Below are positions 12,021 to 32,000 of a stretch of DNA of 32,000 bases, in pieces. Within the stretch, counting starts at the first letter, position 1. Each line of letters opens with the position of its first letter. This stretch comes from Arthrobacter sp. H14-L1 (GTDB lineage: Bacteria > Actinomycetota > Actinomycetes > Actinomycetales > Micrococcaceae): the NCBI RefSeq assembly GCF_026627425.1, contig NZ_JAPNLH010000026.1, positions 5,378 through 37,377 on the forward strand, read 5' to 3'. Position numbers and translations under genes: made by a program. The notes beneath the pieces are model-generated. The model made no database searches and was not told the DNA's origin. It saw only the letters and a program-made list of their open reading frames with translations.

Positions 12021-12061
12021 GGTTTCCTCTCGGGTTTTGCCGGCTGCCGGCCGGCGGATGG

Positions 12062-12730
12062 TTACTGGGGGTGAGTGTTGATGGTCAGCGGGTGCTGGGG
12101 GTTAGTGGAGAGGAGATGGTCCAGGCTGTTGTCCAGATGGACCGTGGTGGCGGCACTGGCGACCCGGGCATTGCCCTTCGCGATTGCCCGGGCAATAGTG
12201 GCGTGTTCCTGGGCAGCGGCCAGCAGTCTGCCGGGGTTGTCCTGGGAGAGTCGACGGACCCGGACCAGATGCACCCGGAGACCTTTCAGTGCCTGCGCCA
12301 GGTAACTATTGCCGATGGCGGCATCAACGGCCGCATCGAGGCGGCTCACCAGCTCGTAGTACGCAGCGCGGGACGGATCGGGATCGTTGAGCAGCCCCGC
12401 CGCGCCGGTGAGTTCCGCGGACAACTGGCCAAACACTTCCCGGTCGCCTCGCTCGGAGGCGAGCTCGGCGGCGCGGCACTCCAGCGTTGCCCGGAGCTCA
12501 AACAGCTCACGAACCTGATGCAGGGAAATGTCCGTGACCACCACGCCGCGGCCGCGCTGTGCCGCCGTCAGGCCTTCCGCTGTAAGCCTGGCGAGCGCCT
12601 CCCGCAAGGGTGTGCGGGAAACGCCCAGCCGCTCGGACTGCTCCACCTCGGCCAGCACCGATCCGGGAGGCAGGCGCCAGTGAACGATGTCGGCACGCAA
12701 AGCCGCGTAGGCACGATCGCTGGCCCGCAT
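12062..12730 (-). CDS. GntR-family (FadR/FCD-type) transcriptional regulator, probable prp regulator
   Basis: The track ORF is trimmed to the ATG at 12730, which is preceded by GGGAGG. N-terminal winged HTH ...[29 protein letters not shown] and a helical FCD-like C-terminal domain. It lies 41 nt upstream of prpD on the same strand. Confidence 0.85.
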
Positions 12731-14917: not shown

Positions 14918-15622
14918 CTACCGCCAGCAGTATTCGTTTTCCGGCCTCCCTGGCGTCCCGTAACGGGCGCTGCGCAGCACAATTCCCGTATCGGACAGAT
15001 ATTCCAGATACCTACGGGCTGTGACTCGGGACATTCCGAGCCCGTCCATCACCTCGTAGGCCGACGCCGCCCGTCCAACTCCGCGTAAATAGGACACGAC
15101 GGCGGACAAGGTGGTCTCTGACAGGCCCTTTGGCAGCGGTGGTGTCGTGGGCGCCCGCAAACTGGCAAACGCCAGATCGACGTCGGTTTGCGAAGCAGGC
15201 GCGGTCGGAGAAGCCAGCTGCTGCCGGAAGTCTCGGTAGCTGACAAGCTTTTCCGCGAACATCGCATAGCTGAAGGGTTTGATGAGGTATTGGACTGCGC
15301 CGCTGGAGATGGCGGTCCGGACCACTTTCAGGTCCCGGACGGCGGTGACGGCAATGATGTCCACGGCCAGACCGGCGGACCGGACGCGGCGGGCGATATC
15401 AAGTCCGTGCAAGTCGGGAAGATTCATATCCAGCAGCATGAGATCGATCGGTGCCCCGGCCTCGGCGCACTGCTGCAGGGCACGCAGCGCGGACTGACCA
15501 TCGTGGGCAATGCCACCGAGGGAAAAACCGCCGATCCGTTGCAGATAGGTGGCATGCGCATCGGCGGCAATTGGCTCGTCATCTACCACGAGGACGCGGA
15601 TCGGTTGCGGGAGAACGCTCAT
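14918..15622 (-). CDS. Two-component response regulator (CitB/DcuR family)
   Basis: Receiver domain IRVLVVDDEPIAA...MLLDMNLPDLHGLD...YLIKPF and a C-terminal HTH (GMSRVTARRYLEYLSDTG). ATGA overlap with the kinase stop (15619-15622). Confidence 0.85.
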   Translation of the reverse strand: MSVLPQPIRVLVVDDEPIAADAHATYLQRIGGFSLGGIAHDGQSALRALQQCAEAGAPIDLMLLDMNLPDLHGLDIARRVRSAGLAVDIIAVTAVRDLKVVRTAISSGAVQYLIKPFSYAMFAEKLVSYRDFRQQLASPTAPASQTDVDLAFASLRAPTTPPLPKGLSETTLSAVVSYLRGVGRAASAYEVMDGLGMSRVTARRYLEYLSDTGIVLRSARYGTPGRPENEYCWR

Positions 15623-18951: not shown

Positions 18952-18996
18952 TCAGGCCCCTGTTTGCCGACCGCTGGTCGGTAAACAGGGGCCTGA
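18952..18996. terminator. Strong hairpin (about 20-bp stem), probable bidirectional terminator
   Basis: TCAGGCCCCTGTTTGCCGAC (18952-18971) pairs with GTCGGTAAACAGGGGCCTGA (18977-18996), with one G-U pair and a 5-nt loop. It begins 18 nt after the dctA stop. No U-tract on either side. It overlaps the last 15 codons of the convergent ABC ATPase ORF. Confidence 0.65.
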
Positions 18997-19794
18997 GCTG
19001 TTGATCGGGGCCGACGGCGGCAGCTGGCTGTTGCCGGACGGAAGGGTTTCCGCGGAGCCGTACCGCGGGACAACGGTGCGGCGCAGGGTCCCGTTGCCTT
19101 CCTGGTATTCCAGGGTGCTGACGCCGACGCCGTAAAGGTCGCTTAGCTGAACGGCGGTCAATAATTCTGCGGCACTCCCGGCCAGCACGCCGTCCCGGCG
19201 CATCAGGACCACGGAATCGGCCAGGTACAGCGCATGGTCCGGCTCGTGGGTGCTGAGCAAAAGGGCCATCCCGTCCGCCTTCAGATCCCGCAGCAGGGTC
19301 AGCACACGTACCTGGTTCTTTAGGTCCAGTCCGGTGGATGGTTCATCTAAGACAAGCAGGGGGCAGTCGGTGGCGACGGCGCGGGCAATGAGGACCAGCT
19401 GCTGTTCGCCTCCGCTGAGGGTGGGAAACAACCGGTCCGCCAGGTCGGCGATGCCGACCCGCTCCATGGCCTGCAGCGCTGCCGCCCGATCGGCCGCACC
19501 AGGGGAACGAAAAATGCGGACCTGGCGGGCCCTGCCCATGAGTACCATATCGAGCGCACGGTAGGCGAAGGAGCTGCTGTGCGCTTGAGGCACGTAGCCC
19601 ACCGTCTGCTCTCTGGTGATGGCGCCTTCGGTAGGCGCCAGAAGCCCGGCAGCACAGCGCACCAGCGTGGTCTTGCCGCTGCCATTCGGTCCCAGTACCG
19701 CCGTTGCAGTGCCCGACGTCACCCGGAAACTGACATCGCGGAAAATGTGTTCCGCCGCCCGGTAGCCGTAGGCAACGTGGTCCAGCTCAAGCAC
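18952..19794 (-). CDS. ABC transporter ATP-binding protein (FecE/BtuD-type)
   Basis: Walker A GPNGSGKTT, signature LSGGEQQ, Walker B LLVLDEP. The track start (GTG 19848) lies inside the permease gene. I prefer the GTG at 19794 (VLELDHVAYGY...), which overlaps the permease stop by 8 nt. The C-terminal ~50 aa are low-complexity. Confidence 0.85.
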   Translation of the reverse strand: MLELDHVAYGYRAAEHIFRDVSFRVTSGTATAVLGPNGSGKTTLVRCAAGLLAPTEGAITREQTVGYVPQAHSSSFAYRALDMVLMGRARQVRIFRSPGAADRAAALQAMERVGIADLADRLFPTLSGGEQQLVLIARAVATDCPLLVLDEPSTGLDLKNQVRVLTLLRDLKADGMALLLSTHEPDHALYLADSVVLMRRDGVLAGSAAELLTAVQLSDLYGVGVSTLEYQEGNGTLRRTVVPRYGSAETLPSGNSQLPPSAPINSSGPCLPTSGRQTGA

Positions 19795-20863
19795 TGTCCC
19801 AGATCCTGTCCCGGTTATGGCGCAGCAATAAAAAGAAAACCGGCGCACCGATCAGAGCGGTCAGCACACCTAATGGGATCTCCCCGGCCGTAGCTGTGCG
19901 GGCCACGCTATCAACTGCGGTGAGGTAGCACCCGCCCAGCAAAAAGCACACCGGCAGCAGCACCCGGTGGTCCGGTCCCACCCAGATGCGGGCCAGGTGG
20001 GGGATGACCAGTCCCACCCAGCTGATCACTCCGCTGACGGCCACCGCGCCGGCCACGATCAGTGCGACGGCGATCAGGACCACCACACGTAACGAGCGGG
20101 GCCGCAGACCCAACGCTGCGGCATCCTCATCGCCGAGGGACAGCACATTGATCCGCCAGCGCAGGGCCAGCAGCACGCCGGTCCCGGCCAGAATCGGGAT
20201 CACCGCGATCAGGACCTTGGCGTAATTCGCCGTCGCCACACTGCCCAGCAACCAGAAGACGATCGCAGGCAAGGTGGTGAACGGATCGGCACTATACGTG
20301 ATCAGCGCCACTAACGCGGAAAAGAACGATCCCACGACGACGCCGCCGAGAACGATCATGAGCATCGGGGTACCGCCGCGGCCGGAGACGATCAGGAACA
20401 GCAGGCCCAGCGCTGCCAACCCAAAGACAAAGGATCCGCCCACCAGGAGCAGGGAACCCAGGCCAAACAGCAGGGCCATCGCACCGCCAAAGGACGCCCC
20501 TGCCGATACGCCGATGATTTCCGGGCTGACCAGCGGATTACGAAAGATGGCCTGCAGCGCGGCGCCGCCCATGGCAAGACCGCCGCCCACCAGCAGTGCC
20601 AGCAGAACCCGGGGGAGCCGGACCAAGAGGACCACGGTTTCTTCGGAGCTGTTCATGGGCGTGTCCAGCGGCAGGAGCCGGGAGGCGAGGATCTGCACTA
20701 CATGCCAGAACGGGACGTGGTAGCGGCCTACCGTCAGCGCCAGCAGTGCCAGGGCGAGCAGCAGAATAGCCGTGACCGCTACGGGGCCGATTATCCGCGG
20801 GACCGACCGTGTGGCCGGGGCACCGAGTCGCTTGGGCCTCAGCTCCCGGACCTCACGCGCCAC
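19787..20863 (-). CDS. ABC permease, FecCD/BtuC family (metal-chelate type)
   Basis: 358 aa with about 9-10 hydrophobic segments. Family motif GGAALQAIFRNPLVSPEIIGVSAGASFG. The GTG start overlaps the binding-protein stop by 11 nt. Confidence 0.85.
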   Translation of the reverse strand: MAREVRELRPKRLGAPATRSVPRIIGPVAVTAILLLALALLALTVGRYHVPFWHVVQILASRLLPLDTPMNSSEETVVLLVRLPRVLLALLVGGGLAMGGAALQAIFRNPLVSPEIIGVSAGASFGGAMALLFGLGSLLLVGGSFVFGLAALGLLFLIVSGRGGTPMLMIVLGGVVVGSFFSALVALITYSADPFTTLPAIVFWLLGSVATANYAKVLIAVIPILAGTGVLLALRWRINVLSLGDEDAAALGLRPRSLRVVVLIAVALIVAGAVAVSGVISWVGLVIPHLARIWVGPDHRVLLPVCFLLGGCYLTAVDSVARTATAGEIPLGVLTALIGAPVFFLLLRHNRDRIWDSA

Positions 20864-22028
20864 GGAACTGTTCGTAGTCGGCGGATTTGCTGTTCACGCT
20901 CATCCACAATATGGTGTCGATTTCCGCCGAATCGGGTGCCTGCCCATACAGGAAGCGGTAATAGTCCGGGATGGCACCACGCAGGGCGGAGGACTTCTGG
21001 CTTGGGAAGCTGATGTCCGTAAGCCACTGCCACATCAGCGGTGATTCCTGGCCCGGGGGATCCCAGCGGTACCCGCCTAGGGGAACCTTGTAGACCCGCC
21101 GCTCGCGCACCGCCGAAACGTTCTGCCAGACCGGGTCAGAATAGATATCCTGCGGCAGTGCACCGTCGAAATTGCCCAGGAGGACGACCTCGGGATTCCA
21201 GGCCAGGACCTGCTCCACATCCACGCCCACCATGCCGGAACCCTTGACACCGGTACCCGCCGTGGCGGGATTGCTGCCGCCCACCAGCTTGATATAGAAA
21301 TCGTTGTAGCTCCCGTTGGCGGCTACCTTGAGTCCTCCCGTGAAACGGTTGAAATACAGAATGCGCGGTCCGGGGCCTGACCGGCCGGCAGCCAGAGCCC
21401 GGATCTTTGTCAGCTCCAGCTCGCTGCGGGATTTGATCGCGGTGGCCCGCTCCGGTTTGCCCAGCATTTCCGAGAACAGGGTCACCCACGCGTCAACATC
21501 CGACTGCTGTCCGGTGTTGGTCAAACCAAGGACCTTCAGGCCGGCATTCTCCAAGGGTCCGGTGAGTTGCGAATCGCTCCACTGCACCACGACATCCGGA
21601 TTCAGCGCCCGGATGCTTTCCACGTTGGGGGTGAAGTCCGTCGTGGCGATATCGTGCGGGACCGTCAAGGCCTTCGGAAAGAGTTTGCCCATGGTGCCGT
21701 CCCGCATAGCCAGCCACGAGGCATTGTGCATACCGCTCAGATGGTCAGCGCTTTGGTCAACGGCCACCAGCAGGGACGCGGCGGGCATTGGAATGGTCAC
21801 TACCCTGCTAACAGGTCTGTCAAACGTCAGTGTCTTGCCCCGCTGGTCAGTCAATCGAATGGTTTGGGCTAACGCCGAGGTGCTGCTTGGCGCCGGGGTG
21901 CCCTGCGGCGCCGCGGTGCCTTCCGGGGCCGAAGCGCTGTTATCCCCGCACGAGGACAGAAGAACCGCGCCTCCGCCGAGCATCATCATGGACAGAACCG
22001 AACGGCGGCTGATGTCGGGGTTGCGCAC
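20853..22028 (-). CDS. ABC substrate-binding lipoprotein (siderophore/heme/B12-type periplasmic binding protein) with a Tat-like signal
   Basis: GTG start with AGGAGG 7 nt upstream. N-terminus MRNPDISRRSVLSMMMLGGGAVLLSSCGD has a twin-arginine motif (SRRSVL) plus a lipobox (LLSSC). Its position upstream of the FecCD permease and ATPase supports the call. Confidence 0.8.
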   Translation of the reverse strand: MRNPDISRRSVLSMMMLGGGAVLLSSCGDNSASAPEGTAAPQGTPAPSSTSALAQTIRLTDQRGKTLTFDRPVSRVVTIPMPAASLLVAVDQSADHLSGMHNASWLAMRDGTMGKLFPKALTVPHDIATTDFTPNVESIRALNPDVVVQWSDSQLTGPLENAGLKVLGLTNTGQQSDVDAWVTLFSEMLGKPERATAIKSRSELELTKIRALAAGRSGPGPRILYFNRFTGGLKVAANGSYNDFYIKLVGGSNPATAGTGVKGSGMVGVDVEQVLAWNPEVVLLGNFDGALPQDIYSDPVWQNVSAVRERRVYKVPLGGYRWDPPGQESPLMWQWLTDISFPSQKSSALRGAIPDYYRFLYGQAPDSAEIDTILWMSVNSKSADYEQFRGA

Positions 22029-22229
22029 GAGCTGGCCTCCTTACAGGAAAGATCAGCAAAAGTTGCTCTCTTCGATTGCTCACAGCATCCGCCCGAACAG
22101 CGGGGCTGTCAACGGCGGCATGACCACATCTCCGGCACCGTCTCCGTCTCTGGCTCCGGTACTGATCCTTGTCGTCGGCGGCCGCTGGTGCTAGCGTCAA
22201 AATCATCTGTTGTGGAGCGAGGCCAACTC

Positions 22230-23003
22230 ATGGTTATTAACGGTGCCCAGTTGTTTGTCCGTTACGCGTATCCGCCCAATTCCCGGGGTAGTTGCGGACC
22301 TCAAGACAGCGACGCCCTTCTGCACTATGGTCAGTCCGGAGTGACGGACCGAGGGTTGAAGGAGCTGGCAAAAGGATTCGCCGGCGCGTGGCCGTATCTT
22401 GAACTGATCGCCCGGGCCACCAATATCACCGATCCACTGAATTACCGAGTGGTGGAGGCCTACTGGGTCGGGAACCCGCTGCTGGACACCGTCGGTGTGA
22501 GGAACATCGGCAATTCGATGGAGGACCGCTTCCGGGCCCGAACGGGCATGCAGTTCCCGCATTTGGTTGAGGGTGTTCTTGCCGGCGGGGTGCCGCACCA
22601 CAGTTTCCACGTCTTCGAGATCTATCCATGGCTGGGGCTGCTCCACGATGACCGCAGATACCCGACGGCGCTCAACGTGCTGGACCAGTGCCGCATCCGC
22701 TGGGGCGAGGTGTTGGCCGTGACCGGGGATGAGGCGCTGGTGCGCTCGCAGCCGCTGGTCTGGGACGGTGCGGTGCTGAGCCTGGGCCCGGCCATCGTGG
22801 AGACCGCCAAGCATGCCGTTGCGGGGACTGGCTTTGTGGCCAATCTGGCCGTCGGCGATGCGGTCTCGCTGCACTGGGATTGGGTCTGTGACAGGCTCAC
22901 CCCGCTGCAGCTGCAGCGGCTGCAGCACTTCACTGCCCGGCATCTGAAGATCGCCAACACCGGCGTCGAACACCGCGGCACGGCCGTCGCGCTTGAACGT
23001 TAA
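22230..23003 (+). CDS. Conserved hypothetical protein (I recall the N-terminal motif as DUF6390-like; unverified)
   Basis: The track ORF starts at GTG 22188. The ATG at 22230 has GAGG 7 nt upstream and gives MVINGAQLFVRYAYPPNSRGSCGPQDSDALLHYG... No catalytic motif recognised. Convergent on hypC with a 24-nt gap, and divergent from the ABC operon. Confidence 0.6.
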   Translation: MVINGAQLFVRYAYPPNSRGSCGPQDSDALLHYGQSGVTDRGLKELAKGFAGAWPYLELIARATNITDPLNYRVVEAYWVGNPLLDTVGVRNIGNSMEDRFRARTGMQFPHLVEGVLAGGVPHHSFHVFEIYPWLGLLHDDRRYPTALNVLDQCRIRWGEVLAVTGDEALVRSQPLVWDGAVLSLGPAIVETAKHAVAGTGFVANLAVGDAVSLHWDWVCDRLTPLQLQRLQHFTARHLKIANTGVEHRGTAVALER

Positions 23004-23027: not shown

Positions 23028-23285
23028 CTAGCCAGCGGTCGCGTCCTCCTCCGGACCGGAACCCAAAAGTTTCAGCCCTCCCATCGCCCGCTCGGCTCCG
23101 GCCGCATCCACCCGCTCCAGCGCGAAGCCCATGTGGATAATTACCCAGCTTCCGGCTTCCAAGGGACCCTCATCCAGCAAGCCGATGTTGATTTTCCGCC
23201 GTACCCCGGCGACGTCTACCAGAGCCAGCTGATCGCCGTAGCCGGCGAGCAGCTCAATCACCCGGCCAGGGATTCCCAGGCACAT
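23028..23285 (-). CDS. hypC: Hydrogenase assembly chaperone HypC/HupF family
   Basis: Canonical N-terminus MCLGIPGRV with the essential Cys2. 85 aa. Last gene of the hydrogenase operon. Confidence 0.92.
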   Translation of the reverse strand: MCLGIPGRVIELLAGYGDQLALVDVAGVRRKINIGLLDEGPLEAGSWVIIHMGFALERVDAAGAERAMGGLKLLGSGPEEDATAG

Positions 23286-23863
23286 GAGCCATTTCTCCTT
23301 ATCGCTGGAAGAGATTCAGTAATTTCCTCGATGAGCTGCCCGATGGCGCTCAGCGCTTCGGGGATGGCGGCCGCCACGGCAGGGGACAGTCCGATTCCCT
23401 CCGACAAGTCTCCGGGCACGCAGCCCACCACAAATGTCAGCGGAACACCGCCGCCCAGCGACGTCAGCCTGCCCAGCACAGCCACCGGGTCCATCCCGTG
23501 CGGGTCCAAGGCCGGTGGGCCGCCGTCGTGATTGCTCTGCAGATCCTCGGAGCGGACCTGCAGCACACGGATGGCTCCGGACATTTCCGCAGCCGGATGG
23601 GAACGCGCGGATCCGTTGCCGCCACCCGTTCGAGGTGCCGGCACGGTATCGACCAGGATCAGGGCATCCACGCGGTCCAGCAGGTCATAGGCCAAATGCA
23701 TTCCACGGATGCCATAGTCCACCGCGTGGACGCCTGGACGGAGCATGGCCGCATCGGTCGCCATCGCGCGCGCGACCTCGGGACCGAACCCGTCGTCGTG
23801 CAGGAACATATTGCCTACTCCGGCCACGAGTATGCTGCGGGGGACAGTCTCGATGCCGCTCAC
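23258..23863 (-). CDS. [NiFe]-hydrogenase maturation endopeptidase (HupD/HyaD/HybD family)
   Basis: Conserved ILVAGVGNMFLHDDGFGPEV...DALILVD...DPHGMDP motifs. The track ORF (from 24235) runs across the upstream gene. I place the start at the GTG at 23863 (VSGIETVPRSILVAGVGN), which makes a GTGA overlap with the small ORF. The ATG at 23998 is the alternative. Confidence 0.8.
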   Translation of the reverse strand: MSGIETVPRSILVAGVGNMFLHDDGFGPEVARAMATDAAMLRPGVHAVDYGIRGMHLAYDLLDRVDALILVDTVPAPRTGGGNGSARSHPAAEMSGAIRVLQVRSEDLQSNHDGGPPALDPHGMDPVAVLGRLTSLGGGVPLTFVVGCVPGDLSEGIGLSPAVAAAIPEALSAIGQLIEEITESLPAIRRNGSCAWESLAG

Positions 23864-23979
23864 ATCCGGCTGATTTTCACGTAGCGGACAATGTCCGGAA
23901 TCGAGCGCACCATCACCGCGATTCCTGTCAGGGCGGTCAGTGCCAGCGTCACGGCGGACAGCTTTCCCAGGGTTTTCAT
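23860..23979 (-). CDS. Small (39 aa) predicted single-pass membrane peptide, absent from the ORF track
   Basis: Hand translation of the minus strand from 23979 gives MKTLGKLSAVTLALTALTGIAVMVRSIPDIVRYVKISRM*. It forms an ATGA overlap with the upstream stop and a GTGA overlap with the protease start. 31 of 39 codons end in G/C. Confidence 0.7.
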   Translation of the reverse strand: MKTLGKLSAVTLALTALTGIAVMVRSIPDIVRYVKISRM

Positions 23980-25460
23980 GTTCGGGTTTCCTTTCCATCA
24001 CCAGTAGCGGGTACCGGGTCGAGAGGCTCCAGCTCATCCGGAGAGAAGTAGAGGTATCGTCCGTACCATTCCTGCAGTTCCGCCGCCGGATCCGCTTCGA
24101 TGACGACGGCGACGTGAGTACTGCCGTCGACGTCGAAATGAACGCCGGTGACGCGCGCGCTCTGGCCGGTTGAGAACAGGTCCTGCGCATCGGCCCGGCG
24201 GTTCGGCATGACCACAACGCGGCTGCCCCTGGCAACGGGCACGCCTTTGATCACCACGGCGTCGGTTTCCGGCTTGACACTGGAATCGGCCGCGGGGTCC
24301 CACCAGGGAGCCTGTTTGAGGGGACTATCACCGAGCACCGGGAAGGCAGGGGTGAGGTCAGCGCCGTCCCGGGGTCCGCCCAGGAGTCCGGCACCCCATT
24401 GAACATCAGGCTCACCTGCTGCCTCCGCATGCGGGTTGCGGAGGATTCCGTGCAGCGCCTGCAATTGGTCATCGCTCATGGCCTCGCAACGGTCGATGAT
24501 CGCCGCAGCCCGCGGGTCCGTGGCCCTCGCCTCGGCCTTTTCATTCTCGGTGAGCGTCAGTACGCGCAGCGTGAGGATCTCATCGATTTCGGTTGAATCG
24601 TAGAGTTCAACCGAGCTTTCCGGCGCCACAGCGGGGTGGTCATAGAGAATGATCGGGGAGATCAGCAGGACGTCGCTTTGCCCCTCAGGCCCGGCAAGGA
24701 CAGGCCAGCCGCGGTGCTGGCTGCAGGCTGCCGCTGCGGCACGTAAGTTCTCCGGCGGGTCCAGCAGCGAGATGAAGTCCGCGTCCTGCACGCTCAGCAA
24801 CAGATGCGTGCCGATGAACGACAGCGCGATTGCTTCCTGCTTTTGAACCGTTCGGCCCGCCGCGGTATTTACCGCACTCACCCGAAGGCGCAGCGGCCCG
24901 GAATGGGATTCGCCGCCGTCGACGGGGTCGTGGAGAGTTCTGGCGCATAGCCTGACCTCTCCCCAGAGGGGCTTCCTTCTGCGCACGAGCCGTCCTGCCA
25001 GCGCCCCGGCCGCATCGTAGAGCAGCTCGGTCTCATCGGCGCCGGGAACCCGGACTGCCGTTATCAATCCACCGGCCAGTTGATCGAGCGCGAACGGGCC
25101 CAAGGTGATCTCCTGTTCGGTCGCCTCGTCCCACGTCAGCCATCGTGCAGCACCGATCTGCAGCGCAGGTACCGGGCTGAAGCTCCCGTCGTCGAACTCT
25201 TCACAGGTCCGGGACTGCAGCTGCAGGAAACGCAGATGCACCTCCAGCCGGGCCTCCGGGCCGGCGAGCAACAGGGTGTCCGCGAACATGGTTGACTCCT
25301 CGCCCGCTCCCGCGGCGGCCGCGCCGGGTGGGCCCAGGATGCCAAACTGCCAGCGTGACTGGTTTTTCTGCGAGGAGGCACGGTAGGGATAGAGGAGGTA
25401 GCCCTCGTAGAGGACCGCATCCGCGATGGCCCTGGCCAGGCTGAGGCTCGGATTCATCAT
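23976..25460 (-). CDS. Hydrogenase-operon protein of unknown function (494 aa)
   Basis: Long ORF with coding-like composition and an ATGA overlap at both ends. N-terminus MMNPSLSLARAIADAVLYEGYLLYPYRASSQKNQSRWQFG. No motif I can assign. Confidence 0.75.
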   Translation of the reverse strand: MMNPSLSLARAIADAVLYEGYLLYPYRASSQKNQSRWQFGILGPPGAAAAGAGEESTMFADTLLLAGPEARLEVHLRFLQLQSRTCEEFDDGSFSPVPALQIGAARWLTWDEATEQEITLGPFALDQLAGGLITAVRVPGADETELLYDAAGALAGRLVRRRKPLWGEVRLCARTLHDPVDGGESHSGPLRLRVSAVNTAAGRTVQKQEAIALSFIGTHLLLSVQDADFISLLDPPENLRAAAAACSQHRGWPVLAGPEGQSDVLLISPIILYDHPAVAPESSVELYDSTEIDEILTLRVLTLTENEKAEARATDPRAAAIIDRCEAMSDDQLQALHGILRNPHAEAAGEPDVQWGAGLLGGPRDGADLTPAFPVLGDSPLKQAPWWDPAADSSVKPETDAVVIKGVPVARGSRVVVMPNRRADAQDLFSTGQSARVTGVHFDVDGSTHVAVVIEADPAAELQEWYGRYLYFSPDELEPLDPVPATGDGKETRT

Positions 25461-26098
25461 TGGACCGGGTCACCGGCCGCCGCCAGCAACTCTTCGACAG
25501 CGGCTTCCCAGGTGGTAAGTCCGAGACTTGCTTTATAGAGCGCCAATGCTTTGATGACATCCCGATCAAGCCGGAGCCAGCCGCTGTTGGGGAAATGCTG
25601 GTTCATTAATTCGGTCCAGGTAGCGACCGGCAGTTGGAAGGACGCCTCGCGGTCCCACGGCACCGGTTCGACGCCGAACCCGGTGGCTCCTTTGGTGAAG
25701 ACGGTTCCGGAGAACAGCAGTTCCACCGGAATGCTCCGCTCGCGAAGCGCGTGCAGGTATTTCGCTGCGGCGACCTCGAAATCGAAGGTACAGGGAAGGG
25801 CGAGATCCACCATGGTCGCATTGCTGAAGCCCTGCACCATGGTGCTGCACTGCATCCAAAGGAAGGGTTTGAGCGTCGAGGGCCAGCGCACGCGGGTGCC
25901 GAAGAGATCCAGTAGACCAGCTTCCTCCTCCGGGGTGTAGCCACGGCGCTGCGGCTGAATCCGCACCTGGCAGCGCAATGCTATCGCGTGGATGGCCGTG
26001 CCCGTCGTTTCGGTGAGGCGCAGCCGGGCAGTCAGCTGTGGGGAGGCTGCGTAGCGTTCGGGAAGAATGTCCTCAATGCTGAAGCCAAGATCGGTCAT
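25457..26098 (-). CDS. Hydrogenase-operon protein of unknown function (213 aa; I recall homologues labelled DUF6084, unverified)
   Basis: ATGA overlaps at both ends. MTDLGFSIEDILPERYAASPQLTARLRLTE... No cofactor motif. Confidence 0.75.
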   Translation of the reverse strand: MTDLGFSIEDILPERYAASPQLTARLRLTETTGTAIHAIALRCQVRIQPQRRGYTPEEEAGLLDLFGTRVRWPSTLKPFLWMQCSTMVQGFSNATMVDLALPCTFDFEVAAAKYLHALRERSIPVELLFSGTVFTKGATGFGVEPVPWDREASFQLPVATWTELMNQHFPNSGWLRLDRDVIKALALYKASLGLTTWEAAVEELLAAAGDPVQ

Positions 26099-26793
26099 AA
26101 CCGGGGCCCGCTTCCGGCCCGGGCCGCTGTAGAGGAGGTTCCGAGGTATGGCCTGCTGCGGTTACTAACCCGCTCAAAGAAGGCCGAGAGCTGGACGCGC
26201 GCGTCCTGGCCGCCGTCGAAGCCCCGCCAGACTTTGCGCAGCTGACCGACCAGTTCGTAACAGGCATCAATCGGCACCAGATGACAATCGGCCTGCAGGC
26301 GCTCCGGCCCAGGAGCCCGGATCAGCAACGCCTCCGTGTCCGGGACGGCAGCGCCAACGGCAGGGTTGCGTGCCAGCACTGGTTCCCACGCACCCAGCGG
26401 CAGCTCCGACTCCGTGGCGCCGGCGGGGCCGGGATAAAACGCCACGGTCCGACCCATGCGGGAATTGGTGAAGAAGAATGCCAGGCCAACGGGTATCTCC
26501 AGTTCGTCCCACACCCCGGTTCCCAACTCAAATCCGGGAAAGGAAAGGTAACGCTCCGGCACGGAACGGTACCGCAGGTGTGCCGTTGCATCGGTAAAGA
26601 GCAAATAGCACGGCCGGCAGGTGCACATCAGGGCGCGGCTCTGAACATCGACCACGTGCTGGTGCTTTTCTGCCAGAGGCTCTGCGCACATCTCACAGCG
26701 CTCGCCGTCGGCGCTGGCGGAACGGCTGACGGCGATGCGCCGGAGCATGGCCACCGGCCCGGCGGCCGGGATGCTGCCTGTTCCGGGGCTCAT
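26095..26793 (-). CDS. Hydrogenase-operon Cys-motif protein of unknown function (232 aa; I recall homologues labelled DUF5947, unverified)
   Basis: The track ORF is trimmed to the ATG at 26793, which forms an ATGA overlap with the upstream stop. It contains CEMC-x20-CTCRPC. Confidence 0.75.
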   Translation of the reverse strand: MSPGTGSIPAAGPVAMLRRIAVSRSASADGERCEMCAEPLAEKHQHVVDVQSRALMCTCRPCYLLFTDATAHLRYRSVPERYLSFPGFELGTGVWDELEIPVGLAFFFTNSRMGRTVAFYPGPAGATESELPLGAWEPVLARNPAVGAAVPDTEALLIRAPGPERLQADCHLVPIDACYELVGQLRKVWRGFDGGQDARVQLSAFFERVSNRSRPYLGTSSTAARAGSGPRL

Positions 26794-27824
26794 GAAACGG
26801 TCCCGACTGGAATGGCGACGGAAATCACGCCGCCGCGCACGAGCAACGGAAGCGGATCCAGATGCAGTGCCTTGTCCTCCAGGCACGCACCGGCCATCCT
26901 TACATCGAAATGGGCCCGGCAGGTGGGGCACCGCAGCAGACCGCCTCCCGTAGGGGCCGCGAGGGCGCGCTGCAATGACGCCCCTGCCAGGGACTTCTCA
27001 CACCGCGGACAGTAGTCCAGGTAAGCGAAAATGTCCTCGCCGATCCGGCAGGCCAGCAGCCTGGCTCCGCCGACCAGAAAGCCTGCCACCTCCCCTGACC
27101 GGAGTCCGCCAAGCTCCGCCGCCGGCTCCCAGGCCCCACCCGACGGGCCGGGAACAGCGGGTTTGGCCTGCTGATCCCGATCATTTTGCTGATCCAGGCG
27201 CAGCCGCAGCGCGGCCACGGGAATGACGGCTGCGGAAGGGCTGGGCTCCTGCTCCACCACTTGGATGGATGTCACCTCGGGGGCCGCCGTTTCAATGGCA
27301 TCCTCGACCGCGAGCTTCAAAGTGACGGACGATGACGGGCAGCCGTGGCAGCTTCCCAATAGTCGCAGGCTCACGATCCCGTCCGCGCTGATACCCAGCA
27401 GCTCCACGTCGCCGCCATGGGAGCCAAGGTAGGGCCGCACACTATCGAGTGCAGCGGCGACTCTGGTCGGCACGTCCTGTGGATGCAGACCGTGGACCAG
27501 CAGTAAACCGGAGATCAGCTCATCCTTGACCAGGGCCTCCAAAGTGCCGTTGGTTTCACCTCCCCGGGCCGAAATTACGCCGAGAATGCGCTCCAGCCCG
27601 GCACCGTAGAGGTCCGTGACCTGCCGGACCAGCTCCTCGGAGCGCTCACGGGCCACCGCACCGCCGGAGGACAGCGCATCCAGCAGTGTTCCGATCCGTG
27701 TCCCCGAATTCCGCAGCTGGTCGGCGCCGGAGCCGGCCACTGCAGCCTGCCCCGCTGGCCGCGGCGCAGCGGCTGCAGGCGCAGCGGCTTCGCCTTGCTC
27801 CAGCAAACCGTCCTGCGCGATCAT
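26790..27824 (-). CDS. NifU(Nfu)-domain protein with a C-terminal Rieske-fold-like Cys4 domain (HhyE-like putative Fe-S protein)
   Basis: Nfu-type motif YLGSHGGDVELLGISADGIVSLRLLGSCHGCPSSSVTLKLAVEDAI (aa ~130-177). The C-terminal domain carries CPRC-x23-CPTC (aa 272-302). It lies immediately (6 nt) downstream of the large subunit. Confidence 0.8.
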   Translation of the reverse strand: MIAQDGLLEQGEAAAPAAAAPRPAGQAAVAGSGADQLRNSGTRIGTLLDALSSGGAVARERSEELVRQVTDLYGAGLERILGVISARGGETNGTLEALVKDELISGLLLVHGLHPQDVPTRVAAALDSVRPYLGSHGGDVELLGISADGIVSLRLLGSCHGCPSSSVTLKLAVEDAIETAAPEVTSIQVVEQEPSPSAAVIPVAALRLRLDQQNDRDQQAKPAVPGPSGGAWEPAAELGGLRSGEVAGFLVGGARLLACRIGEDIFAYLDYCPRCEKSLAGASLQRALAAPTGGGLLRCPTCRAHFDVRMAGACLEDKALHLDPLPLLVRGGVISVAIPVGTVS

Positions 27825-27830
27825 GGCGGG

Positions 27831-29624
27831 TCATTCTCCGGTGAGTGACTGCGTGGGGGAGTGCAGCATATCCAACGTTTTACCCTCGCCCAGATACATG
27901 TGCACGCCGCAGGGCAGACAGGGGTCAAAGCTGCGCACCGTGCGCATAATGTCGATTCCCTTGAAATGCTCCCGGTCGTTCTCTTCGAAGATGGGCTGCC
28001 CCTGCACCGCGTCTTCATACGGCCCCGGAGTTCCGGACGCGTCGCGCGGGCTGGCGTTCCACGGCGTTGGCGGATAGGGATGGTAGTTGGCGATCTTGCC
28101 GTCACGAATCACCATGTGGTGTGAAAGAACGCCGCGGACCGCTTCGGTAAAGCCGCAACTGACCGCCTCGTCCGGGACCTCAAACGATTCCCAGGTCTTG
28201 GTCCGTCCGGCCCGGATTTCCTCCAGCGCCTTCTCCGCGAAATGCAGGGCCGCGGCCGCCGCGTAGGCCTGGAAATAGGTGCGGGCCCGGTTGCGTTCGA
28301 GCGTGTTGCTCCACTGCGGAATCTTCCATTCGAGTGAGACTGGTCCTTTGAGAGCCGTCTTGGGCAGGTTGATCTCCACGCTGTGTCCGGTGGATTTGAG
28401 GTAGCCGATGTCGACGAGTCCGGCCAGCGCCGTCGACCAGAGCCGTGCCAGTGGGCCACCGCCGGTATCCAGCGCCAGATTATCCTGTCCGTCAAACCAG
28501 CGCGGTGACATAACCCAGCTGTATTTGTCCGTCAGGTCACGCTTTTGCGGGCGGGGATTGGTGTGCTGGTTCCACGGATGACGGCGGTCCACCGGGTTAC
28601 CGAGCGGGTCATTCGTGACGAACATCTCCTGATCATTCCAGTCCTCGTAGTAGGAGGAGCCCAGCATGATCCGGATGCCGAGGTTGATCCGCACCAGATC
28701 GGTGGTCACTAGCTTTCCGTCGACCACGACGCCCGGGGTGACAAACATCTTCCGGCCCCAGTCGGTCATGTCCTTGTAGGCGAAGTTGCAGTACTCCGGA
28801 TCCTGGAAGGAACCCCAGCACCCCAGCAGCGTCCGCCGCAGCCCGACTTGCTCATAGCCCGGTAGCGCGTCGTAGAAGAAATCGAAAAGATCATCGTGCA
28901 TGGGCACGACCTTCTTCATGAACTCCACATAACGCATCAGCCGGGTGAGGTAATCCGTCATCAGCTGGATCGTGGCAACGGTGCCGACTCCACCCGGATA
29001 AAGCGTGGAGGGGTGAACATGGCGACCCTCCATCAGGCAGAACATTTCCCGGGTGAGCCGGCTGACCTGCAGCGCTTCGCGGTAGAACTCACCGGTAAAA
29101 GGATTCAGCGAACGCATGATGTCCGCAATGGTCCGGTATCCGTGTTCGCCTTCATGCGGGGCCCGGGTGTTTTCCGCCTTGGCCAGTACCGCCGGGTTCG
29201 TCTCAGAGACCATTTTTTCGCAGTAGTCCACGCCCACCAGGTTCTCCTGGAAGATGTTGTGATCGAACATGTACTCCGCGGCTTCACCGAGATTGACGAT
29301 CCATTCGCCCAGATGCGGCGGCTTCACCCCATAGGCCATGTTTTGCGCATAACAGGAGCACGTGGCGTGATTATCGCCGCAGATCCCGCAGATCCGGCTG
29401 GTGATGAAGTGCGCGTCGCGAGGATCCTTGCCGCGCATGAAGATCGAGTACCCGCGGAAGATCGAGGAAGTGCTGTTGCACTGCACCACCTGCTTGTTTT
29501 TGAAATCTATTTTGGTATAGATGCCAAGGCTGCCGACAATCCGTGTGATGGGATCCCACGCCATCTCCACCAGTGAATCGTCCGCGGCGTTGCCCGATGC
29601 GGGTAACGGAATCGTGGAGGTCAT
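27831..29624 (-). CDS. hhyL: [NiFe]-hydrogenase large subunit, group 1h (formerly group 5)
   Basis: L1 motif TSRICGICGDNHATCS and L2 motif SFDPCLPCGVH, followed by a 22-aa C-terminal extension (MYLGEGKTLDMLHSPTQSLTGE) for protease cleavage. 597 aa. RBS AAGAGG. Confidence 0.95.
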   Translation of the reverse strand: MTSTIPLPASGNAADDSLVEMAWDPITRIVGSLGIYTKIDFKNKQVVQCNSTSSIFRGYSIFMRGKDPRDAHFITSRICGICGDNHATCSCYAQNMAYGVKPPHLGEWIVNLGEAAEYMFDHNIFQENLVGVDYCEKMVSETNPAVLAKAENTRAPHEGEHGYRTIADIMRSLNPFTGEFYREALQVSRLTREMFCLMEGRHVHPSTLYPGGVGTVATIQLMTDYLTRLMRYVEFMKKVVPMHDDLFDFFYDALPGYEQVGLRRTLLGCWGSFQDPEYCNFAYKDMTDWGRKMFVTPGVVVDGKLVTTDLVRINLGIRIMLGSSYYEDWNDQEMFVTNDPLGNPVDRRHPWNQHTNPRPQKRDLTDKYSWVMSPRWFDGQDNLALDTGGGPLARLWSTALAGLVDIGYLKSTGHSVEINLPKTALKGPVSLEWKIPQWSNTLERNRARTYFQAYAAAAALHFAEKALEEIRAGRTKTWESFEVPDEAVSCGFTEAVRGVLSHHMVIRDGKIANYHPYPPTPWNASPRDASGTPGPYEDAVQGQPIFEENDREHFKGIDIMRTVRSFDPCLPCGVHMYLGEGKTLDMLHSPTQSLTGE

Positions 29625-29650: not shown

Positions 29651-30709
29651 TTACCAGGTGCGGGTGGCGCCGGTGAGCAGTTCGGGGCCGGTCCTGCGCC
29701 AGCGTGGTTCCTTGTCAAGGGTGTTCATGGTGATGTGCCGCAGCGTCCGCACGGCAGCGCCGTAGGGCCGCACGGCATTGGTGGAGAGAATGCTGCCCGG
29801 CGGCTCATCCATGAACGGCATGAACTTATCGGGGAACCCCGGCATCGTGCAGCCTATGCAGATACCACCAACGTTCGGGCACCCGCCAATTCCATTCATC
29901 CAGCCGCGCTTGGGAACATTGCATTTAACCACCGGGCCCCAGCAGCCCAGCTTTACGATGCATTTCGGCGAGCCGTATTCAGTGGCAAAATCACCTTGCT
30001 CGTAATACCCCGCCCGGTCGCATCCCTCGTGCACGGTCCGGCCGAAAAGCCACGTCGGCCGCAGCGCGTCGTCCAACGGAATCATGGGCGCCTGCCCGGT
30101 CGCCTGGTACAGCAGGTAGGTGATGGTTTCGGAGAGATTGTCAGGTTGGATGGGGCAGCCCGGAACACAGACAATCGGTATTCCGGCCTTGGACCTCCAG
30201 TCATAGCCAAGGTAATCGGGAACGCCCATCGCACCGGTGGGATTGCCGGCCATGGCATGGATACCGCCATAGGCCGCGCAGGTTCCGGCGGCAATAATGG
30301 CAGTTGCCTTCGGTGCAAGCCGGTCCAGCCATTCGCTTGTCGTAATGGGCTGCCCGGTCTCCAGATCGTTGCCGAAACCCGACCAGTATCCGCCGACGTC
30401 GTGCAACTTCTCGTTGGGAATGGAACCCTCGACAACGAGGACAAATGGCTCCAGTTCGCCCCGGTCCGCCTTCCGGAACCACTCGAGGAAGTCATCTGCA
30501 CCCTCCTGGGGGCCGCATTCAAAATCAATGAGCGGCCAATGCATGGCAACCTGCGGCAGACCGGGCAGGGCACCGAGTGCTATTTCCTCCACGCTGGGCT
30601 GCGTAGCCGCGGTCAGCGCCACGGAGTCGCCGTCGCAGCTGAGACCGGCGTTGATCCATAGGACATGAATAAGAGATTCTTCGGCTTTTATCGAAGCTTC
30701 TGTAGGCAT
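29651..30709 (-). CDS. hhyS: [NiFe]-hydrogenase small subunit, group 1h, no Tat signal
   Basis: It starts MPTEASIKAEESLIHVLWINAGLSCDGDS with no twin-arginine leader. Fe-S ligand regions GTCAAYGG, VPGCP and GCWGPVVKCNVP...GGCPNVGGICIGC. Strong RBS AAGGAGG. Confidence 0.95.
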   Translation of the reverse strand: MPTEASIKAEESLIHVLWINAGLSCDGDSVALTAATQPSVEEIALGALPGLPQVAMHWPLIDFECGPQEGADDFLEWFRKADRGELEPFVLVVEGSIPNEKLHDVGGYWSGFGNDLETGQPITTSEWLDRLAPKATAIIAAGTCAAYGGIHAMAGNPTGAMGVPDYLGYDWRSKAGIPIVCVPGCPIQPDNLSETITYLLYQATGQAPMIPLDDALRPTWLFGRTVHEGCDRAGYYEQGDFATEYGSPKCIVKLGCWGPVVKCNVPKRGWMNGIGGCPNVGGICIGCTMPGFPDKFMPFMDEPPGSILSTNAVRPYGAAVRTLRHITMNTLDKEPRWRRTGPELLTGATRTW

Positions 30710-30750: not shown

Positions 30751-31668
30751 TTATGCGTTTGTCTGCACCTGCGACTCGGACGCCATCGGATGCGATTGGG
30801 CGCCCGCGTGCGACGCCGGTGTTTGAGTGTTCTTGATCAGCCAGTCGTACCAGCTGTCCAGACCAGCGCCGTTCGTGGCGGAAATAGCGAGCATCTCGAC
30901 GTGCGGATTCAGCTGTCGTGCCTGGCGGAGGCATTCATCCACGTCGAATTCAACATAGGGCAGCAGATCGGACTTATTGATTATCACTAGATCTGCGGCC
31001 ATAAACATGTGCGGATATTTTTGCGGCTTATCATCACCTTCCGTGACGGAAATAATCACTACCTTGGCTGTTTCCCCCAGATCAAAAAGCGCCGGACAGA
31101 CCAGATTTCCGACATTTTCAATAAAGAGCGTTGATCCCGGAGCCGGGTTGAGTGCTTCGAGCCCCCGTCGGAGCATATCGGCGTCCAGATGGCAGCCGGC
31201 TCCGGTATTAATCTGAACAGCTGGACGCCCGGCGCTACGAATGCGGTCGGCATCCAGCGACGTCTCCTGGTCACCTTCAATGACCGTAATGCCCAGCCTT
31301 TCGCCCAGCTCTTCAATGGTGCGGACCAGCAAAGTCGTCTTGCCTGCCCCGGGGGAACTCATCACATTGAATGCCTGGATGGCACGCCCGGCCAGCCAGC
31401 CCCGGTTTCGCGCGGCCAACAGGTCGTTCTTGGCCAGCAGGCTCTGCTCCAGCGTGATCGTGGTCACTGGAGCATGGGTATGTGCCGGGCCACCCTCGTG
31501 CGAGTGGTTGTGTCCGCCGTCGTGCGCGTGCTCCTGCTGGTGCCCGTCGGGGTGTTCACCGTCGTGCACATGCTGATGTCCGTGGTCCGGTTCCGGGACG
31601 GCGACGCTGCCGTTTACGCTTGACACCCGAACCTCGCCGTCGTCGCTGCAACCGCAGGTGGAGCACAT
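30751..31668 (-). CDS. hypB: Hydrogenase nickel incorporation GTPase HypB
   Basis: The track ORF is trimmed to the ATG at 31668 (MCSTCGCS, a CxxCGC Ni site). His-rich tract HGHQHVHDGEHPDGHQQEHAHDGGHNHSHEGGPAHTH. P-loop SSPGAGKTT. ENVGNLVCP and NKSDL motifs. Confidence 0.95.
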   Translation of the reverse strand: MCSTCGCSDDGEVRVSSVNGSVAVPEPDHGHQHVHDGEHPDGHQQEHAHDGGHNHSHEGGPAHTHAPVTTITLEQSLLAKNDLLAARNRGWLAGRAIQAFNVMSSPGAGKTTLLVRTIEELGERLGITVIEGDQETSLDADRIRSAGRPAVQINTGAGCHLDADMLRRGLEALNPAPGSTLFIENVGNLVCPALFDLGETAKVVIISVTEGDDKPQKYPHMFMAADLVIINKSDLLPYVEFDVDECLRQARQLNPHVEMLAISATNGAGLDSWYDWLIKNTQTPASHAGAQSHPMASESQVQTNA

Positions 31669-31670
31669 AT

Positions 31671-32000
31671 TTACCCCACTTCCACGGACGCAAGCATCAG
31701 CTCGCGGCCGCCCGTGATTTCGATGTCGGCGCTGCCGCAGGTGCACAGCGGAATCGTGTCCGGAAGAATGAAACTCTGCCGGCACGTGTGGCAGGTGGCC
31801 CGGCCGGCCGGCTCGTCGATGCGTAGATCGGCGCCGGCCAGCGGAGTTCCCTCCGCCAGCAATTGGAAACAGAACCGCAAGGCATCCGGCAGGACGCCAC
31901 TTAGCCGTCCGATCCGCAGGTTCACCCCGGTGACAGTGCGATCGCCGGTGCGGTCAAGCACCGCGTCGACCAGGCTTTGGGTAATGGAGAGTTCGTGCAT
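31671..32000 (-). CDS. hypA: Hydrogenase nickel insertion protein HypA
   Basis: MHELSITQSLVD N-terminus (MHE Ni site) and Zn motif CHTC...CTCG. 109 aa. The ATG falls exactly at the window edge (31998-32000), and the TAA lies 2 nt before the hypB ATG. Confidence 0.9.
   Translation of the reverse strand: MHELSITQSLVDAVLDRTGDRTVTGVNLRIGRLSGVLPDALRFCFQLLAEGTPLAGADLRIDEPAGRATCHTCRQSFILPDTIPLCTCGSADIEITGGRELMLASVEVG

Follow-up and report, generated by a model that had tools for sequence, protein, structure and literature searches.

The genes that separate the large-subunit gene from the maturation protease gene in the group 1h [NiFe]-hydrogenase (Hhy) operon of Arthrobacter sp. H14-L1 are, by a modest measure, probably a group-1h-specific maturation and assembly module, acting with the maturation endopeptidase on the precursor of the large subunit HhyL, on the small subunit HhyS, or on both. 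The operon lies on a stretch of 32,000 nucleotides (contig NZ_JAPNLH010000026.1, positions 5,378 to 37,377; Micrococcaceae), here called the window. The block comprises hhyE, one gene each of the DUF5947 and DUF6084 families, and a gene for a 494-residue protein (p494), and in the window a short gene for a DUF6893 peptide follows. HhyE-like, DUF5947, DUF6084 and p494 genes are passed on together as a single translationally linked unit, whose place is always between hhyL and the endopeptidase gene. If they form a maturation module, they are best read as no part of mature Hhy or of its electron path. Group 1h hydrogenases are a main biological sink for atmospheric H2 and support the survival of soil bacteria. 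How Hhy is made in air and how it is joined to the membrane are both still called unresolved in the literature to 2026, and the block genes, still annotated as hypothetical, are obvious candidates for both tasks. The genes at the centre of the argument are these, in order of transcription:

27831..29624, minus strand: hhyL, group 1h large subunit (1078 bits to HofG of Cupriavidus necator, 5aa5)
26790..27824, minus strand: hhyE, 344 residues (Pfam NifU, E-value 7.5e-22, 77.7 bits)
26095..26793, minus strand: DUF5947 protein, 232 residues (Pfam DUF5947, 241.2 bits, cut-off 25)
25457..26098, minus strand: DUF6084 protein, 213 residues (Pfam DUF6084, 308.4 bits, cut-off 25)
23976..25460, minus strand: p494, 494 residues, without a Pfam or NCBIfam family
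23860..23979, minus strand: DUF6893 peptide, 39 residues (Pfam DUF6893, 36.3 bits, cut-off 24.6)
23258..23863, minus strand: [NiFe]-hydrogenase maturation endopeptidase, 201 residues, GTG start (TIGR00072, 2.3e-25; Pfam HycI)

Natural gene fusions are the first line of evidence. The p494 family has at least 7998 homologues (3824 cluster representatives at 50% identity), every listed one to which a source gives a name being called 'hypothetical protein', and among its long members six carry a C-terminal HycI protease domain, one an N-terminal DUF6084 domain and one an N-terminal DUF5947 domain. For one p494::protease fusion (P0148) the protease domain is present in 88 of the 120 best relatives, from two phyla, with the isolate Aciditerrimonas ferrireducens, Ilumatobacteraceae and Thermoanaerobaculia among them. 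The fusion aligns end to end with the separate proteins of the window, p494 residues 2-493 being followed directly by protease residues 11-182, and several p494::protease clusters have independent full-length members. The DUF6084::p494 fusion (P0209) belongs to a cluster of 28 members on many contigs, and the DUF5947::p494 fusion (P0261) is found on 4 contigs; HhyE was never seen fused. Fused genes occupy the same operon position as the separate genes do elsewhere. Frameshifts or assembly errors were considered as an origin and rejected, given the independent full-length members, isolates included, and the breadth with which relatives share the architecture. Because p494 is recurrently joined to the enzyme of the last step of large-subunit maturation, it works with that enzyme. 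Likewise, DUF6084 and DUF5947 work with p494, given that each is fused to it, and p494 is the hub of the block.

The second line of evidence is genetic and comes from Mycobacterium smegmatis, where deletion of hhyE abolishes Hhy activity, leaves no Hhy band in nitroblue tetrazolium (NBT) zymograms and is complemented by hhyE (PMC6883350). The authors of that work noted that an artificial acceptor is unable to make up for the loss and that an assembly role is possible (PMC6883350). Dye-linked activity ought to survive the loss of an electron acceptor further downstream, so the phenotype fits that of an assembly factor. Two bands only, HhyL and HhyS, were seen for the group 1h enzyme purified from Methylacidiphilum fumariolicum SolV, which reduces NBT (PMC7174314). 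A group-1h-specific maturation complex had been one of three candidate roles offered in a preliminary description of this DNA, and the protease fusions and the mutant phenotype now favour it. That description had also held that none of its five core genes had an established function; this still applies to four of them in the literature to 2026 and fails for hhyE, which has a mutant phenotype (PMC6883350).

Conservation of the block was examined in two sets of loci. One was anchored on HhyL and held 79 untruncated actinobacterial loci from Arthrobacter, Rhodococcus, Nocardia, Mycobacterium, Streptomyces, Actinoplanes, Modestobacter and other genera. The check on order conservation across group 1h loci that had been proposed earlier was run on this set, and HhyE (with a homologue in each of the 79), DUF5947, DUF6084 and p494 stand in this order in 79/79, with the protease following in 77/79; the mycobacterial loci have the same block in the same order. 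The other set was anchored on DUF6084 and came from a metagenome search with a profile led by the C. necator sequence, each neighbour being scored where the flank sufficed. DUF5947 was present in 56/56 such loci, p494 in 59/60, the HhyE-like gene in 39/40, hhyL in 25/26, hhyS in 18/18 and the protease in 33/33. The order hhyS-hhyL-HhyE-DUF5947-DUF6084-p494-(DUF6893)-protease-hypC recurs on plasmid pHG1 of C. necator and in Methylocystis, Acidobacteriota and Acidimicrobiia. In these samples the block is specific to group 1h loci and almost inseparable from them in Actinomycetota, Pseudomonadota and Acidobacteriota, so that the earlier picture of a tightly linked, order-conserved, group-1h-specific unit stands for the HhyL- and DUF6084-anchored loci alike. 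The notion of a five-gene core needs amendment: four genes plus the protease are universal in these loci, and the 39-residue gene varies in presence and position. The SolV genome has no homologues of the hypothetical genes of the Pyrinomonas Hyd-1h operon, yet SolV makes an active group 1h enzyme that has high affinity and is associated with the membrane (PMC7174314). The block is consequently widespread and not universal.

The links between the genes are as regular as their order. Rereading the minus strand and recomputing the junctions returned the five 4-nt overlaps at the coordinates first given: ATGA at 26793-26790 (HhyE stop and DUF5947 start), at 26098-26095 (DUF5947/DUF6084), at 25460-25457 (DUF6084/p494) and at 23979-23976 (p494/39-residue peptide), and GTGA at 23863-23860 (39-residue peptide/protease). 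The gaps of 41, 26 and 6 nt at hypB/hhyS, hhyS/hhyL and hhyL/hhyE were likewise reproduced, and the chain of overlaps extends one gene beyond that account, hypC overlapping the 3' end of the protease gene by 28 nt. What does not follow is the obligatory coupling and fixed stoichiometry once read from this chain, as the same overlaps are common at unrelated junctions in the window. Overlaps of -4 occur at prpB/citrate synthase (9556-9559) and at histidine kinase/response regulator (15619-15622), with others of -1 at prpD/prpB, of -8 and -11 among ABC transporter genes, and one of -7. Given that short overlaps are so ordinary here, the run marks an operon and is in itself no evidence of a complex. 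Physical association of DUF5947, DUF6084 and p494 is supported by the natural fusions. The signal beyond chance is the conservation of the overlaps across loci, not their run in one window: against a rough chance expectation of about 16%, the -4 overlap is kept at HhyE/DUF5947 in 63/79 HhyL-anchored loci, at DUF5947/DUF6084 in 69/79 and at DUF6084/p494 in 77/79. In C. necator, Methylocystis, Thermoanaerobaculia (Acidobacteriota) and Aciditerrimonas, too, the junctions from HhyE to p494 are overlaps of 4-8 nt. Upstream, hhyS and hhyL are mostly separated by 10-46 nt in the HhyL-anchored loci, 48/79 of which have a tight hhyL/hhyE junction (+3 or -4 nt). The junctions flanking the 39-residue gene are much less fixed, with -4 in 23/61 and 14/61 loci.

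The three proteins that follow HhyE were compared with known families and structures. p494 opens with the conserved motif ADAVLYEGYLLYPYR...KN..RWQFG. Its beta-rich core (about residues 40-270) is followed by a helical region that is acidic and conserved (STEIDEILTLR...), from which a variable linker leads to an SH3-like barrel at the C-terminus. It matched nothing in Pfam, NCBIfam or PDB, and Pfam searches at E-values up to 10 with fragments and distant homologues returned noise only. An AlphaFold2 (AF2) model with a mean predicted local distance difference test score (pLDDT) of 69.6, confident in the core at residues 40-270, gave domain-level Foldseek matches only; the SH3-like domain resembles PetP and the beta subunit of nitrile hydratase. 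In the core, residues 63-283 (window 24610-25270, minus strand) weakly match 7s9w_A, the N-terminal region of the DISARM helicase DrmA, with an E-value of 7e-5 and a probability of 0.99 but a template modelling (TM) score of 0.19, and the PADLOC hidden Markov model for DrmA independently gives a weak match at positions 83-299 (E-value 4.5e-4). The two may share a domain; no functional inference is drawn from the likeness, the paper on the DISARM structure being silent on the function of that region. DUF5947 carries the motif CxxC-x7-HxH-x10-CxCxxC, and its residues C33, C36, H44, H46, C57, C59, C62 and C178 are invariant across three phyla, which makes it the one universally conserved candidate for a metal site in the block. 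In its AF2 model (pLDDT 77.8) residues 80-212 form a well-predicted alpha/beta domain, and with this model Foldseek found no PDB match below an E-value of 0.06. DUF6084 has no invariant cysteine in the locus alignment. Searches of PDB by sequence and by profile gave nothing credible for any of the three, the best matches (E-values 0.15-1) being chance ones such as a zinc finger and a hyaluronate lyase, and no homologue of them is present among PDB chains, those of the C. necator hydrogenase (large subunit 5aa5_C) included.

The 344-residue protein of the window is identified as HhyE by its published signature (PMC6883350). Its N-terminal region is helical and holds an invariant HGLHP motif; an Nfu/NifU domain with the CxxC motif GSCHGCPSS at residues 157-165 and a C-terminal domain of Rieske-like fold with two CxxC motifs (CPRC 272-275, CPTC 299-302) follow. 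Three CxxC motifs are present in 66/68 long homologues, and its PDB relatives are Nfu-domain entries only. The label 'Rieske-like' given to it earlier cannot be taken literally: Rieske_2 reaches 17.5 bits where the cut-off is 27, all ligand positions are Cys, in the pattern CxxC...CxxC instead of CxH...CxxH, and the likeness is a weak, fold-level resemblance. The Nfu CxxC is lost in the homologues of C. necator, Methylocystis, Actinoplanes-type loci and Aciditerrimonas, and the C-terminal four-cysteine domain is missing in 11 loci; what stays invariant is the N-terminal helical region with HGLHP. Ligand-less HhyE-like proteins that keep HGLHP and have lost the C-terminal cysteine domain too are encoded in loci L081 (7112-7687, C. 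necator), L082 (7180-7701), L040, L048, L061 and L085 of the comparison. Such proteins, judged by their residues, could not bind a cluster in the usual way. Given that the ligands are lost in several lineages, cluster-based electron transfer cannot be the conserved function of HhyE.

The 39-residue open reading frame (ORF) is a real gene, because its DUF6893 score exceeds the cut-off and a homologous peptide occurs in most loci (63/72 of those where p494 and the protease could both be modelled); DUF6893 is also found in Aciditerrimonas and Acidobacteriota and is absent from the C. necator and Methylocystis loci. The peptide consists of one hydrophobic helix and a conserved tail, given as SIPDxRRYLKxRxM or as SIPDxxRYxKxxRM, and is the only membrane element encoded from hypA to hypC. 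By the positive-inside rule the basic tail would be cytoplasmic, with a single span oriented N-out/C-in. The gene stands before the protease gene in most actinomycete loci and after it elsewhere. In all 61 loci that match the pattern the peptide ends in Met-stop, whichever gene follows (TGA in 33, TAG in 25, TAA in 3). Given that the terminal methionine is kept with any stop codon and any next gene, it is selected at the level of the peptide and is no by-product of an overlap. Examples of this ending outside the window are at 8487-8591 in L085 and 11013-11120 in L086. A spacing of 340-740 nt separates the DUF6893 gene from the protease gene in L007, L012, L013, L015, L019, L026, L028, L030, L034, L039, L042, L049, L051 and L058, which is enough for an extra gene.

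How the block might act can be sketched as follows. HhyE, DUF5947, DUF6084 and p494 would form a transient complex on the HhyL precursor, HhyS, or both, would hold or prepare the subunits under oxic conditions, and would then hand HhyL to the endopeptidase for removal of the C-terminal extension. HhyL of the window carries the L2 motif SFDPCLPCGVH and a C-terminal extension of 22 residues, which is the substrate of the protease. DUF5947 would supply the metal or redox site with its eight conserved Cys/His ligands. HhyE, where it has the Nfu CxxC as in the window, may also deliver [4Fe-4S] clusters to HhyS, and DUF6893 may serve as a membrane tether, either for the complex or for the finished enzyme. 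Such a model predicts that loss of DUF5947, DUF6084 or p494 blocks HhyL processing or assembly rather than electron transfer.

Several points weigh against this proposal. Fusions show a functional link and not a mechanism, and both the complex and its activity are extrapolated from sequence. Methylacidiphilum makes an active group 1h enzyme without the block, so that the module is not universally needed for maturation (PMC7174314). The AF2 models of p494 and DUF5947 gave no informative fold match that would tie them to known maturases. HhyE is reported, in work cited in PMC6883350, to co-localise with HhyLS on native gels, which would also fit a bound subunit. Genes downstream of hhyE are translationally coupled to it, and effects on them could form part of the deletion phenotype, although complementation speaks against this. 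Finally, the eight invariant Cys/His residues of DUF5947 could hold a redox-active cluster, and PHG067, the DUF5947 homologue of C. necator, has been proposed as an electron acceptor (PMC6883350).

Among the alternatives a division of labour survives best, unlikely as it is. In this case DUF6084 and p494 would mature the enzyme together with the protease, and HhyE, DUF5947, or both would remain on the finished enzyme as a redox or stabilising subunit, held so weakly that purification removes it. Such loss of weakly bound partners is possible for the two-band SolV preparation and for the solved structures. The fusions that link p494 to the protease and leave HhyE aside are consistent with this scheme, as are the tight hhyL/hhyE junction and the reported sharing of one native-gel band by HhyE and HhyLS (cited in PMC6883350). 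Further, the purified Methylacidiphilum enzyme loses affinity and stability off the membrane, so partners matter (PMC7174314). However, DUF5947 too is found fused to p494 (P0261), the cysteines of HhyE are dispensable in several lineages, and all four genes share the same conserved coupling.

An electron relay is improbable. Here HhyE and DUF5947 would act as electron acceptors for the distal cluster of HhyS and as donors to menaquinone, with DUF6084 and p494 as scaffold and DUF6893 as anchor. The conserved Cys motifs of HhyE and DUF5947 invite such a role, which the authors of the deletion study favoured for HhyE and suggested for the PHG067 homologue (PMC6883350). Hhy is membrane-associated without a known anchor (PMC13332983), and the block encodes a conserved single-span peptide. 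Between hypA and hypC, both included, the operon encodes neither a cytochrome b nor another acceptor of known type: it has no haem-binding multi-span membrane protein (HyaC/HoxZ), no recognisable Fe-S ferredoxin fold and no HucM-type domain. Nevertheless, fusions of p494 to the maturation protease occur in two phyla, and the hhyE mutant is inactive even with NBT, whereas purified HhyLS alone reduces it (PMC6883350; PMC7174314). HhyE has lost its Cys ligands in some lineages where the enzyme works, such as C. necator, and the Methylacidiphilum enzyme is membrane-associated and high-affinity without the block (PMC7174314). No PDB chain, the solved C. necator enzyme included, is related to DUF5947, DUF6084 or p494. 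The relay, another of the roles first suggested, is weakened by the protease fusions, the missing PDB relatives and two-band SolV enzyme, the loss of HhyE cysteines and the block-less SolV enzyme (PMC7174314). The third suggestion, a module that reactivates or re-metallates the mature enzyme after oxidative damage in long-term persistence, would suit a hydrogenase described as working in air during starvation, an Nfu domain and a Cys/His protein that could re-supply clusters, and a module dispensable in a microaerophile-leaning thermoacidophile (PMC7174314), but is highly improbable given that activity is not detected at all in the hhyE mutant, where repair would lead one to expect a faster decay (PMC6883350), and that the endopeptidase to which p494 is fused acts once, on the precursor, which points to biogenesis rather than repair.

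Maturation by the block has a bolder form, which seems quite possible while falling somewhat short of probable: DUF5947, DUF6084 and p494, together with HhyE, may constitute a previously unrecognised class of [NiFe]-hydrogenase maturase, coupled to the endopeptidase and in many lineages tethered by DUF6893. Its members would have folds without solved relatives and would, in some phyla, be literally fused to the endopeptidase. Against HypA-F, HyaE, HyaF/HupH, HybE, HupK and HoxR, neither DUF5947, DUF6084 nor p494 gave a Pfam or NCBIfam match (p494 to an E-value of 10). If true, such a class would account for the assembly of atmospheric-H2 hydrogenases in cells that are starving and fully oxic, and DUF6893 could also be the long-sought membrane anchor of Hhy. 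The full accessory set likewise matters for heterologous production of O2-insensitive, high-affinity hydrogenases. The arrangement of the block has been known since the first descriptions of group 5/1h operons, of which the window is another instance, and papers of 2025-26 still speak of 'four CDS of unknown function' or 'four hypothetical proteins'. As far as could be found in the searchable literature, the fusions of p494 to the protease, to DUF6084 and to DUF5947 are new, as are the lineage-specific loss of HhyE ligands and the recognition that the operon's DUF6893 is a membrane peptide, conserved but mobile in position.

The closest locus to that of the window, in Arthrobacter sp. A5, encodes an HhyL 97% identical to that of the window. 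The other genes are:

31671..32000, minus strand: hypA, 109 residues (N-terminus MHELSITQSLV..., typical of HypA)
30751..31668, minus strand: hypB (HypB profiles TIGR00073/PRK10463)
29651..30709, minus strand: hhyS, small subunit (Pfam Oxidored_q6 and NiFe_hyd_SSU_C)
23028..23285, minus strand: hypC, MCLGIPG... (Pfam HupF_HypC, 8e-21)

By the ORF list and translation, hypA starts in the last bases of the window. The start of hypB is probably ATG 31668, not GTG 31785, because the long ORF matches TIGR00073/PRK10463 from its residue 40 onward and this ATG lies 2 nt past the hypA stop; the longest ORF (30751-31785, minus strand), from GTG 31785, would overlap hypA. No Tat (twin-arginine translocation) signal sequence was noted at the N-terminus of HhyS. 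A longer DUF5947 ORF of 278 residues from GTG 26931 was rejected, the conserved start being that of the -4 overlap. The GTG start of the endopeptidase is placed upstream of the conserved ILVAGVGN motif. For hypC the predicted start must be ATG 23285, given the obligatory Met-Cys N-terminus, and GTG 23261 was rejected on the same ground. A scan for promoters and terminators gave no more sites than shuffled sequence and no convincing internal terminator. The window does not contain hypD, hypE or hypF, which in other genera follow hypC.

Directly beyond hypC, and convergent with it, lies a gene for a DUF6390 protein of 271 residues (22188-23003, plus strand; Pfam E-value 3.7e-89). Homologues of it occur no more than 10 kb downstream of hhyL in at least 41/83 loci, mostly on the hydrogenase strand, and its neighbourhood suggests one more gene linked to the hydrogenase. 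An iron-siderophore-type ABC importer (Peripla_BP_2, FecCD, ABC_tran; 18952-22028, minus strand) stands just beyond the operon. Elsewhere, two loci with a fused p494::protease, L084 (3869-4093; Thermoanaerobaculia) and L086 (4973-5191), have between hhyS and hhyL a conserved, very hydrophilic ORF of 72-74 residues (M..S.HDSVT...GHPENVGK...) that is not present in the window, and L084 further has a 754-residue gene with eCIS_core, Glucosaminidase and SH3_3 domains (9833-12097) between the fused gene and hypC.

Comparison with known systems places the block among several relatives and parallels. The closest is the 'actinobacterial hydrogenase' (AH, hofKG) of C. necator H16, in which PHG066-PHG069 of pHG1, placed between the genes for large subunit and protease, belong to these four families and keep their order. 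The p494 homologue there has 476 residues and is 35% identical over 95% of its length (E-value 6e-57), the DUF5947 and DUF6084 homologues align with 39% and 44% identity, and the junctions of the region overlap by 1, 4, 8, 4 and 4 nt. Unlike HhyE of the window, the NifU-like protein of C. necator is short, without the CxxC and without the C-terminal four-cysteine domain. A DUF6893 gene is missing there, and the 476-residue gene overlaps the protease gene directly. The hyp genes of C. necator form one cluster downstream, whereas the window has only hypC downstream and hypAB upstream. HhyE of M. smegmatis (MSMEG_2718) shares with the window protein the Nfu CxxC, the two C-terminal CxxC motifs and a gene directly after hhyL; it alone has been tested genetically, and the downstream genes, MSMEG_2717 included, appear in the literature as hypothetical proteins. 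Its paralogue HucE, also a NifU-domain protein, is needed for activity of the group 2a hydrogenase Huc (PMC6883350). HucE has a true Rieske motif (CxH...CxxC) where HhyE has CxxC...CxxC. Work on HucM reportedly shows that access to membrane and quinone can come, in atmospheric-H2 hydrogenases, from a recruited extra subunit of unusual kind; unlike Huc, the operon of the window has no HucM-like gene. The operons of O2-tolerant membrane-bound hydrogenases (hoxLOQRTV, hyaEF) hold enzyme-specific maturation genes between the structural and hyp genes, and the products, HoxL/O/Q/R/T/V and HyaE/HyaF, are needed for assembly in air and absent from the purified enzyme; this analogy, to which the discussion in PMC6883350 also contributes, speaks for a maturation role of the block. 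No sequence or fold relation between these proteins and the block was detected, none of their families appearing among the Pfam or NCBIfam matches, and group 1h enzymes, unlike the O2-tolerant membrane-bound ones, have no Tat signal peptide to proof-read. The likeness is rather one of position and composition: HoxL/O/Q/R/T/V of C. necator and HyaE/HyaF of Escherichia coli have the same operon placement as the block of the window, and by analogy the rubredoxin-like HoxR may parallel its Cys-rich member.

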